Source: a virus. Taken from it: a DNA stretch of 64,000 nt. Below, piece after piece: positions 23,805 through 34,349 of this stretch; position 1 is the first letter of the stretch, and each line of letters begins with the position of its first letter. Where the stretch lies: UHGV virus genome UHGV-0370399, one strand, 5' to 3'. The translations under genes and the position numbers were made by a program. The notes beneath the pieces were generated by a model that searched no databases, was not told the origin of the DNA, and saw only the letters and a program-made list of their open reading frames with translations.

Positions 23805-25157
23805 ATGTGGAATCCAATTGTTAATGTAGATATTACATTGAACACCGCAGGAACTACAAGAGAAGGTTTTGGTTTGCCACTATTCTTAGCTTCAACAGAT
23901 AACTTTGAAGAAAGAGTCCGTGGTTACACTTCCTTAACTGAAGTTGCTGAAGATTTCGATGAAAACTCTGCTGCATATAAGGCTGCTAAACAACTTTGGA
24001 GTCAGACTCCTAAAGTAACTCAGCTTTATATTGGTAGACGTGCTATGCAGTACACTGTATCAATTCCTAATGCCGTTGCTGAAAGTACAGACTACTCAAT
24101 TACTGTAGCTGCTGGCGGTGGAATTTCTCAACCATATCAGTATACAGCGCAAGCTGAAGACACTGCTGAAAACGTGTTGCAACAGTTTAAAACACAGATT
24201 GAAGCTGACCCAACAATCAAAGATAAGGTTTCTGTGAACGTAACTGGTAGCAATGGCTCTGCCACAATGATTATTACCAAAGCTGGTGATAATGACTTTG
24301 TGAAAGTAACAACTACAGCACAGACTGTGTATATTGCAAGTACAACTGCCGATACAGCATCAACTGCTCTGGCAGCTATCGAAGCTTACTCTACTGACTG
24401 GTATTTCATTGCAGCAGAAGACAGAACTCAACAGTTTGTCTTAGCAATGGCTTCTGAGATTCAGGCTCGCAAGAAAATCTTCTTTACAGCTAACTCCGAT
24501 GTAACAGCCCTGCAAGGTACAGAATTAGCCAGTGCAAATGATGTTCCAGCACAGCTTGCTAAGAGTATGTACACTCGTACAGTTTGCTTGTGGCATCACG
24601 CAGCAGCAGAAGACTACCCAGAGATGGCATACATTGCTTATGGTGCTCCATATGATGCAGGTTCAATTGCTTGGGGTAATGCTCAGCTAACTGGTGTAGC
24701 AGCTTCTCTACAACCATCTAATCAGAGACCTCTGACAAGTATTCAGAAGTCTGCTTTAGATGTACGTCACTGTAACTTTATTGACCTTGATGGTGGTGTT
24801 CCAGTGGTTCGTAGAGGGATTACTTCTGGTGGGGAATGGATTGATATCGTCCGTGGCGTTGACTGGTTAGAATCAGACCTGAAAACTTCTCTGAGAGACT
24901 TGCTAATTAACCAGAAGGGTGGTAAGATTACTTATGATGATACTGGTATTACCCGTATTCGTCAAGTCATTGAAACCTCTCTACAAAGAGCAGTCAACAG
25001 AAACTTCCTGTCATCTTACACAGTTAATGTTCCTAAAGCCTCTCAAGTTGCTTTGGCAGACAAGAAAGCTCGTATCCTGAAAGATGTTACCTTCGCAGGT
25101 ATCTTAGCAGGGGCTATCTTGGATGTTGACTTGAAAGGTACAGTGGCTTACGAATAA
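23805..25157 (+). CDS. putative tail sheath protein
   Basis: 450-aa ORF immediately upstream of a 148-aa tube-sized gene, chaperone pair and tape measure; assignment by gene order only. Confidence 0.5.
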   Translation: MWNPIVNVDITLNTAGTTREGFGLPLFLASTDNFEERVRGYTSLTEVAEDFDENSAAYKAAKQLWSQTPKVTQLYIGRRAMQYTVSIPNAVAESTDYSITVAAGGGISQPYQYTAQAEDTAENVLQQFKTQIEADPTIKDKVSVNVTGSNGSATMIITKAGDNDFVKVTTTAQTVYIASTTADTASTALAAIEAYSTDWYFIAAEDRTQQFVLAMASEIQARKKIFFTANSDVTALQGTELASANDVPAQLAKSMYTRTVCLWHHAAAEDYPEMAYIAYGAPYDAGSIAWGNAQLTGVAASLQPSNQRPLTSIQKSALDVRHCNFIDLDGGVPVVRRGITSGGEWIDIVRGVDWLESDLKTSLRDLLINQKGGKITYDDTGITRIRQVIETSLQRAVNRNFLSSYTVNVPKASQVALADKKARILKDVTFAGILAGAILDVDLKGTVAYE

Positions 25158-25172
25158 TAGAGGTAAATTGGA

Positions 25173-25619
25173 ATGGCTATGTATCAGCAATATTCCCCTA
25201 AAGACGTTGTATGTAGCTGGAATGGTATTGCCATTGAAGGCTTTGCCCCAGATTCATTCTTGCGTCTACAGAGAACATCACCGCTTGTGACACCAGTTGT
25301 TGGTGCAGGTGGTCAAGTTGCTCTGACAAGAAATGCAGACAAGACAGGTACTATTGAGATTGAGTTAATGCAGACTTCTCTCTCTAACCAGATGCTTTCT
25401 GCAATTCAAGCTAAACAAGACAATATGGAACTTGAAGAAGATATCTCTTCTAACTTCGTAATCTACGACCCATCAGGCTCTGTTCTGGCAACTGGTATTA
25501 ATGCTTGGTTGCAGGAATTACCACAGATTGAACTTGGTCGTGACCAGAACTCTAAAACTTGGATTTTTGGTTGTGAGAAGCTAGACTACACTTCTACAAT
25601 TCCAGCGTCAAGTGTTTAA
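25173..25619 (+). CDS. putative tail tube protein
   Basis: 148-aa ORF between sheath-sized gene and chaperones; followed by a strong terminator. Confidence 0.5.
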   Translation: MAMYQQYSPKDVVCSWNGIAIEGFAPDSFLRLQRTSPLVTPVVGAGGQVALTRNADKTGTIEIELMQTSLSNQMLSAIQAKQDNMELEEDISSNFVIYDPSGSVLATGINAWLQELPQIELGRDQNSKTWIFGCEKLDYTSTIPASSV

Positions 25620-25632
25620 TAAATCCTATAAG

Positions 25633-25663
25633 GGGGAGACTTTAAAAGGTCTTCCCCTTTTTT
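25633..25663 (+). terminator. Rho-independent terminator (GGGGAGAC-TTTAAAAG-GTCTTCCCC then TTTTTT)
   Basis: Hairpin and T-run read directly after the tube gene. Confidence 0.7.
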
Positions 25664-25692
25664 GTTTCTTTTAAAAGTATTAAGGAATCACA

Positions 25693-26091
25693 ATGAAAAC
25701 AGAATCTAGAGTAATTAATGGTAAGAAAGTAAATATCGTTCTGCTTGGGGCAAGAGATGGTATTAAGATGTCTATGAAGTTGGGTAAAATTGTTGTTCCA
25801 ACTTTTGCACAGATGCTGTCAAGTCTGACTGACAAGGGTAAGAAAGAAGCTCCAATGGTTCCATTTAAAGAACTTGTTGAAGCTTGTTTTGACAGAATTG
25901 AAGAAATTAACCTTGAAGAAATGGCTACCCTGTTATTTCAAGGAGCAACTGTTGATGACTTCCCACTTAATATTGATACATACTTCCAAGCAAACTATGG
26001 TGAATTTATTGATTACTTAGCATTTGCGCTGGAGGCAAACTTCGGAAGTTTTTTCGAAGCAAGCATTTTCAAAAGCCTAACTTCTCAGTAA
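25693..26091 (+). CDS. tail assembly chaperone (upstream frame)
   Basis: 132-aa ORF directly upstream of tape measure; contains slippery heptamer T_TTT_TTC at 26049-26055. Confidence 0.5.
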   Translation: MKTESRVINGKKVNIVLLGARDGIKMSMKLGKIVVPTFAQMLSSLTDKGKKEAPMVPFKELVEACFDRIEEINLEEMATLLFQGATVDDFPLNIDTYFQANYGEFIDYLAFALEANFGSFFEASIFKSLTSQ

Positions 26092-26093
26092 AC

Positions 26094-26332
26094 ATGGGTA
26101 ACACTCTACAGACACCACTGACTGATGCTGCTGTAGAGGCAACCTATGAAGAAGCAGACGAGATGAAATTTGTGCTTGCTATTTATGGTATGGAAGGGTG
26201 TAAAGAAACACTTGACCAACTCTTTGCTATGACATTCTCTGATTTATTATCATTGAGACAATTTCTTGAAATTCAGAGGTCGTATAAAGAGGAAATTGCT
26301 TACAACGAACTTAGAAGAGCAGGAAAAATGTA

Positions 26333-26333
<1 letters not shown>
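26094..26333 (+). CDS. tail assembly chaperone -1 frame extension (likely expressed as a frameshift fusion)
   Basis: 79-aa ORF in the -1 frame relative to the upstream gene; the -1 frame is open from the slippery site onward. Confidence 0.45.

Positions 26334-34349
<8,016 letters not shown>

Follow-up and report, generated by a model that had tools for sequence, protein, structure and literature searches.

In phage lambda, the tail assembly chaperone gpG and its longer form gpGT are related by a -1 frameshift (Levin 1993; Xu, Hendrix & Duda 2004, 2013, 2014), as reviewed in PMC5009743. The lambda site lies between the tail tube and tape measure genes, the downstream open reading frame (ORF), in the -1 frame, stops at the tape measure gene, there is no evident RNA stimulator, and the fusion is a minor product beside a major short one. 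We found the same arrangement in a Felix O1-like phage, where a similar balance of products is expected. The slippery heptamer is G_GGA_AAG in lambda and T_TTT_TTC here, and our phage is a contractile-tailed myovirus, whose chaperone belongs to the Pfam family Phage_TAC_15 and whose frameshift is predicted. The contractile-tailed phage P2 also uses a -1 frameshift on a T-rich heptamer 5' of its tape measure gene, giving gpE and gpE+E', although these proteins are unrelated in sequence to those studied here. The P2 heptamer is TTTTTTG. Its frameshift efficiency is 2- to 3-fold above that of lambda (PMC5009743). In the E. coli dnaX gene and the IS911/IS3 elements, the slippery heptamer is preceded by a Shine-Dalgarno-like element, which was searched for 6-17 nt upstream in PMC4066793; at our locus, a GGAGG lies 13 nt upstream. 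However, dnaX and IS911/IS3 also have a downstream hairpin or pseudoknot, whereas none was found here, and the GGAGG is not present in all of the lineages that we compared.

The frameshift site itself is already known: it has been annotated in closely related phages and reported in publications. The annotated chaperones of the Felix O1-like phages Meda, Moogle, Michonne and Mijalis involve the same gene, heptamer and junction, with no substantive difference from our locus. The GenBank records of Meda and Moogle from the Center for Phage Technology carry a joined "tape measure chaperone frameshift product", and the fusions that we predicted for these two phages match the deposited proteins AXY86324.1 and YP_009145710.1 exactly, indicating that the depositors used the same junction. 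The Michonne protein YP_009177317.1 (212 aa) falls in the same protein cluster, and frameshifting is mentioned in the genome announcements of Moogle and Mijalis (PMC4319497, PMC5543628). Across the chaperone region, Meda DNA is about 98.6% identical to the window, by which we mean the whole stretch of viral DNA analysed (64,000 nucleotides). The fusion predicted from the window differs from that of Meda by a few residues, and its own sequence is absent from the protein collection. The paper on Pseudomonas phage Adele (PMC12846349, Viruses 2025), which covers Vandenendeviridae (Pakpunavirus) and 231 Andersonviridae phages, described an invariant GTTTTT and an uninterrupted -1 frame in the genes for the N-terminal chaperone part (TAC-N). 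Like ours, that study is purely comparative; it places the motif at the 3' end of TAC-N and argues from a -1 frame kept across divergent genera and from raised conservation at the site. Our analysis adds the Vequintavirinae (Av-05, CR3 and phiTE), an analysis of the ORF2 start and Shine-Dalgarno signals, a negative result for RNA structure, and the GGAGG element.

The window is the genome of a Felixounavirus, a Felix O1-like myovirus, with about 99% identity to Escherichia phage ECML-1 and about 200 other Felixounavirus genomes; the genus is placed in the subfamily Ounavirinae of the family Andersonviridae. By PHROG and Pfam assignments, the genes on the + strand run in the order sheath, tube, ORF1, ORF2 and tape measure, and this order is identical in all relatives examined. 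The tail sheath gene (23805-25157, phrog_205) is followed by a gene for a tail tube-type structural protein (25173-25619; phrog_280, Pfam KPP10_Orf10). ORF1 (25693-26091) encodes the 132-aa short form of the tail assembly chaperone (TAC-N, gpG-like) in the zero frame (frame 1). ORF2 as usually annotated (26094-26333, 79 aa) lies in frame 0, which is -1 relative to ORF1, with its ATG 2 nt past the ORF1 stop. The tape measure gene, whose product is the client of the chaperone, occupies 26333-28561 (phrog_4036, E=0; Pfam TMP_3). ORF1 matches Pfam PF21822 (Phage_TAC_15) with 71 bits against a cut-off of 22, phrog_1613 "tail assembly chaperone" at 2.9e-48, and also phrog_3840; its start has a Shine-Dalgarno duplex energy of -6.1 kcal/mol. 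A search of PDB sequences with the fusion protein gave no significant match.

A strong intrinsic terminator separates the tube and chaperone genes, with a hairpin at 25630-25659 (13-bp stem) and a T run extending to 25669, and it is also annotated in the Meda record. Its probable effect is weaker transcription of the chaperone and tape measure genes than of the sheath and tube genes. The window also carries 15 tRNA genes on the + strand at 11580-14631 (Pro, Glu, Met x2, Asn, Tyr, Asp, Lys x2, Ile, Arg, Ser, Leu, Ala and Gly), a cluster typical of Felix O1-like phages. No tRNA-Phe is among the 15 found in the 64-kb window; on the evidence of the window, reading of the slip site would therefore fall to host tRNA-Phe.

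Within ORF1, the heptamer T_TTT_TTC at 26049-26055 is directly observed, as is its phase, with the zero-frame codons AGT (26047-26049), TTT (26050-26052) and TTC (26053-26055). A sequence-only reading of this DNA had placed a slippery heptamer at these positions in the phase required for a -1 slip, and both coordinates and phase are correct. The heptamer lies 36 nt 5' of the ORF1 stop and is the sole X_XXY_YYZ heptamer inside the overlap between ORF1 and the -1 frame. The same reading held that the -1 frame stays open through ORF2, so that a slip would append ORF2 to the chaperone. This was borne out: from 26013 onward, the frame has no stop until 26331-26333, where the stop overlaps the tape measure ATG (26333). 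A slip would thus produce a predicted 213-aa fusion with the junction ...ANFGSFF/RSKHFQKP... (a slash marks the junction), the junction sequence being ...ANFGSFF/RSKHFQKPNFSVNMGN..., and the GluC peptide that spans the predicted junction is ANFGSFFRSKHFQKPNFSVNMGNTLQTPLTDAAVE. The extension (the T or TAC-C part; 26055-26333) comprises 92 codons plus the stop, and the residues encoded from 26094 onward match phrog_4963 "tail assembly chaperone" at 2.8e-55. Immediately 3' of the heptamer, both frames are coding, with EASIFK in the zero frame and RSKHFQKP in the -1 frame.

An in-phase heptamer by itself is neither rare nor beyond chance. In a crude set of 83 window genes, X_XXY_YYZ heptamers occur in phase at 72 of 18,134 codons, or about 0.4% per codon, and the -1 frame stretch between our heptamer and ORF2 spans only 13 codons in the window. 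These figures are what one would cite for a chance co-occurrence of heptamer and open frame that serves no function. Of the 72 heptamers, only that at 26049-26055 reads T_TTT_TTC, and no other leads into a long open -1 frame (92 codons here, 35 in the next best). The last C of the heptamer gives the -1 codon CGA (Arg); a T there would create TGA, a constraint that applies only when the -1 frame is translated across the site.

The comparison with relatives covered 15 loci: Meda, radambza, Felix O1 and CL1 of Felixounavirus, mistaenkt of Suspvirus, Moogle and Sf18 of Mooglevirus, Yersinia phage P778, phiEa21-4, SE5 and Ea_Tu10 of Kolesnikvirus, Pectobacterium phage Arno162, and Av-05, CR3 and phiTE of Vequintavirinae. 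In 14 of them, spanning Ounavirinae, Arno162 and Vequintavirinae, T_TTT_TTC is invariant and in phase, always at the homologous position N[FY]x[SC]FF and in the form G TTT TTT C; the exception is CL1. A lack of slippery sequence at the homologous sites had been named beforehand as an outcome that would count against frameshifting, and the relatives were found to have the heptamer. Every relative examined keeps the -1 frame uninterrupted between the heptamer and a point shortly before the tape measure gene, with an overlap between ORF1 and the -1 frame of 30-102 nt and an extension of 92-94 codons in Ounavirinae and 123-124 in Vequintavirinae. The chaperone proteins share about 43% identity with that of the window in Kolesnikvirus and 26-30% in Vequintavirinae.

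The conservation is directly observed at the nucleotide level as well. In Kolesnikvirus (Erwinia) and Hafnia phages, blastn detected only 26038-26078 of both ORFs (92.7% over 41 nt), an island on the + strand that surrounds the slip site and extends just 3' of it, where both frames are coding. On a codon alignment of five Ounavirinae lineages, the same amino acid was encoded by the same codon at a frequency of 0.92-1.00 over 26038-26073, versus about 0.25-0.65 elsewhere in the two ORFs. Judged from these alignments, the conservation of the slip site across distant relatives is far beyond chance, and the conservation 3' of the site is most simply explained by dual coding. The heptamer and the frame are kept in every lineage examined, synonymous-site conservation spikes at the site, and distant relatives keep 44-63 open codons without a start; by these comparative data, a functionless coincidence is effectively refuted and we give it a negligible probability.

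The exceptional locus belongs to Escherichia phage CL1 (OK040806.1), where T7 replaces T6 at about 857-863, the positions homologous to 26049-26055. The chaperone and the extension consequently form one 213-aa ORF identical to the predicted fusion, with no in-frame short form. This T7 is most likely a homopolymer sequencing error. If it were real, the phage would make the long form only.

Another explanation is that there is no recoding at all, and that ORF2 gives a separate 79-aa protein, with coupled or re-initiated translation starting at its own ATG (TAA AC ATG) and the heptamer simply encoding the conserved Phe-Phe. The ATG 2 nt past the ORF1 stop fits this explanation, as do the two separate genes found in most GenBank records (RefSeq Felix O1 included) and PHROG 4963, a 79-position profile that begins at the ORF2 ATG. 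We evaluated initiation signals as the duplex energy with the 16S rRNA 3' end over the 83 window genes. The ORF2 ATG in the window has no Shine-Dalgarno by this measure; its duplex energy of +0.7 kcal/mol compares with a median of -6.0, and a stronger duplex is found for 80 of the 83 genes. The start codon is not conserved either, being only TTG in P778 and only GTG in Arno162. Furthermore, the -1 extension of Kolesnikvirus has no ATG, GTG or TTG in the first 55 of 94 codons, and that of the Vequintavirinae phages Av-05, CR3 and phiTE contains none of them within its first 44-63 of about 124 codons. In these start-less extensions, the protein sequence 5' of the first possible starts is conserved.

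Because the start codon is missing or not conserved and the frame is open, a -1 shift at the heptamer is the only family-conserved route to the full-length C-terminal part. The codon choice xxT TTT TTC is also invariant amid scrambled synonymous sites, for which the chance is about 0.13 per independent lineage as estimated from window codon usage, and the avoidance of TGA by the last C of the heptamer again makes sense only for a frame that is read through. ORF2 is thus most likely not an independent gene, and we consider translation of ORF2 without any recoding to be very unlikely. In Felixounavirus, Suspvirus and Mooglevirus, the ORF2 ATG adjoins the ORF1 stop, and in Moogle it is accompanied by a Shine-Dalgarno-like GGAAGG (-7.2 kcal/mol), which likewise favours a separate ORF2. 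Because of these two features, some independent or re-initiated translation of ORF2 may occur in these genera at a low level.

The same fusion could also arise by transcriptional slippage, in which RNA polymerase adds one U on the T6 run, so that the chaperone and its extension are read in one frame from a fraction of mRNAs with U7. This route would suit a homopolymer run and lead to an identical product (..SFFR..), and sequence data alone do not separate slippage of the polymerase from that of the ribosome. The CL1 sequence illustrates that one additional T gives the right protein as a single ORF. In addition, a terminator scan flagged a small, weak terminator-like hairpin plus T run at 26029-26045; we rejected this candidate, as its alignment fold shows no covariation and a consensus energy of -1.2 kcal/mol. 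Six bases are, however, short for a productive bacterial case, the known examples having runs of about 8-9 or more (Atkins 2016 review, PMC5009743). Across lineages, the run is kept at T6 followed by C rather than lengthened (CL1 T7 apart), and it is always in the X_XXY_YYZ phase. Transcriptional slippage is therefore a most improbable source of the fusion.

Taken together, these observations indicate that the tail assembly chaperone gene of this Felix O1-like myovirus very probably uses a programmed -1 ribosomal frameshift like that of lambda G/GT. The sequence-only reading had likened the site to the conserved frameshift fusion upstream of tape measure genes in tailed phages, and gene order, conservation, the ORF2 signals and the GenBank relatives all agree with this likeness. 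In the proposed mechanism, most ribosomes would translate 25693-26091 and terminate, giving the 132-aa chaperone. A minority would slip back by one base on U_UUU_UUC with tRNA-Phe in both the P site (UUU) and the A site (UUC); both tRNAs would re-pair with UUU, and decoding would restart at CGA (26055) and run to 26333, yielding the 213-aa fusion (..GSFF/RSKH..). By analogy with lambda gpG and gpGT (PMC5009743), the short form and the N-terminal part shared by both products may coat the tape measure protein, while the C-terminal extension of the long form may recruit the tube protein, and the ratio of short to long form would be set by the slip frequency. That the slip happens, how often it does so, and which roles its two products have are points that we infer.

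The paper of Sharma et al. 2014 (PMC4066793), which gives rules for E. coli, rates U_UU.U_UU.C as frameshift-prone: it lists the motif as shifting at >0.1% without stimulators, assigns it to the high-efficiency class H_HH.U_UU.Y, and mentions its use by some IS elements. The site agrees with these rules in its UUN A-site codon, its all-pyrimidine composition, and the cognate re-pairing of tRNA-Phe from UUC to UUU. For Felix O1-like phages, we found in the literature neither proof of the fusion by mass spectrometry, western blot or reporter, nor proteomic or genetic evidence for a fusion present at a low fixed ratio and required for tail assembly. The PhageMaP preprint on Felixounavirus Bas63 contains nothing on the chaperone gene.

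The frameshift appears to involve no RNA structure. Folding 26049-26140 as a single sequence gave z=0.14 and no downstream hairpin or pseudoknot. For the 45 nt 3' of the heptamer, six lineages yielded z-scores from -0.2 to +1.5, no better than shuffled sequences. RNAalifold predicted zero pairs for seven Ounavirinae sequences, and no dnaX/IS-type hairpin or pseudoknot was found 5-9 nt past the heptamer. In an Rfam scan of 25600-26500 (E<=1), all matches were sub-threshold and fell on the terminator hairpin at 25630-25659, with none at the slip site. In light of this lack of a predicted or conserved stimulatory structure, the slip efficiency may be low. The lambda G/GT frameshift is not known to need an RNA structure either.

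The internal GGAGG is located at 26031-26035 on the + strand, 13 nt 5' of the heptamer, and this Shine-Dalgarno-like element has a duplex energy of -9.3 kcal/mol with the 16S rRNA 3' end. The window shares it with Moogle, Arno162 and Av-05; mistaenkt and P778 have a weaker version, and none lies 5' of the heptamer in Kolesnikvirus, CR3 and phiTE. GGAGG occurs only about once per 3.4 kb in the window. As a stimulator the element is only suggestive, because it overlaps conserved Leu-Glu codons and could be there by chance; it may act as a lineage-specific frameshift stimulator in the style of dnaX and IS911, raising efficiency in some lineages. An unstructured tract of about 20 nt, CGAAGCAAGCATTTTCAAAA, is nearly invariant in Ounavirinae. 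A more elaborate possibility, which we regard as rather unlikely, is a structure-free frameshift tuned by pairing of the GGAGG with 16S rRNA in Felixounavirus, Mooglevirus, Arno162 and Av-05, with the CGAAGCAAGCATTTTCAAAA tract serving as a sequence-specific downstream element. If this reading were true, these phages would offer a natural series of one slippery site with and without a Shine-Dalgarno stimulator.

Some database entries for this region are unusual. In the records of Kolesnikvirus (phiEa21-4 and SE5; locus 1569-1806) and Vequintavirinae (Av-05, CR3 and phiTE), the -1 extension is unannotated or represented by a short fragment only, for example at 1689-1802 in SE5 (38 aa) and 1938-2153 in Av-05. 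These missing or fragmentary calls are mis-annotations of the frameshift product. A Felix O1-like chaperone region of 97-100% identity also occurs in GU169904.1 (Staphylococcus phage SA1), MG065664.1 (Campylobacter phage A132) and WP_252560994.1 (Staphylococcus hyicus), which look like contaminated, chimeric or mislabelled entries.

The value of these results lies mainly in annotation. Most Felix O1-like records, the RefSeq type genome included, list two small genes at this position, and these are almost certainly one gene with two products. These records should instead give a joined CDS (window coordinates 25693..26055,26055..26333). The locus also provides a clean comparative case, in which a slippery site stays unchanged between subfamilies with chaperones of only about 26-30% identity.
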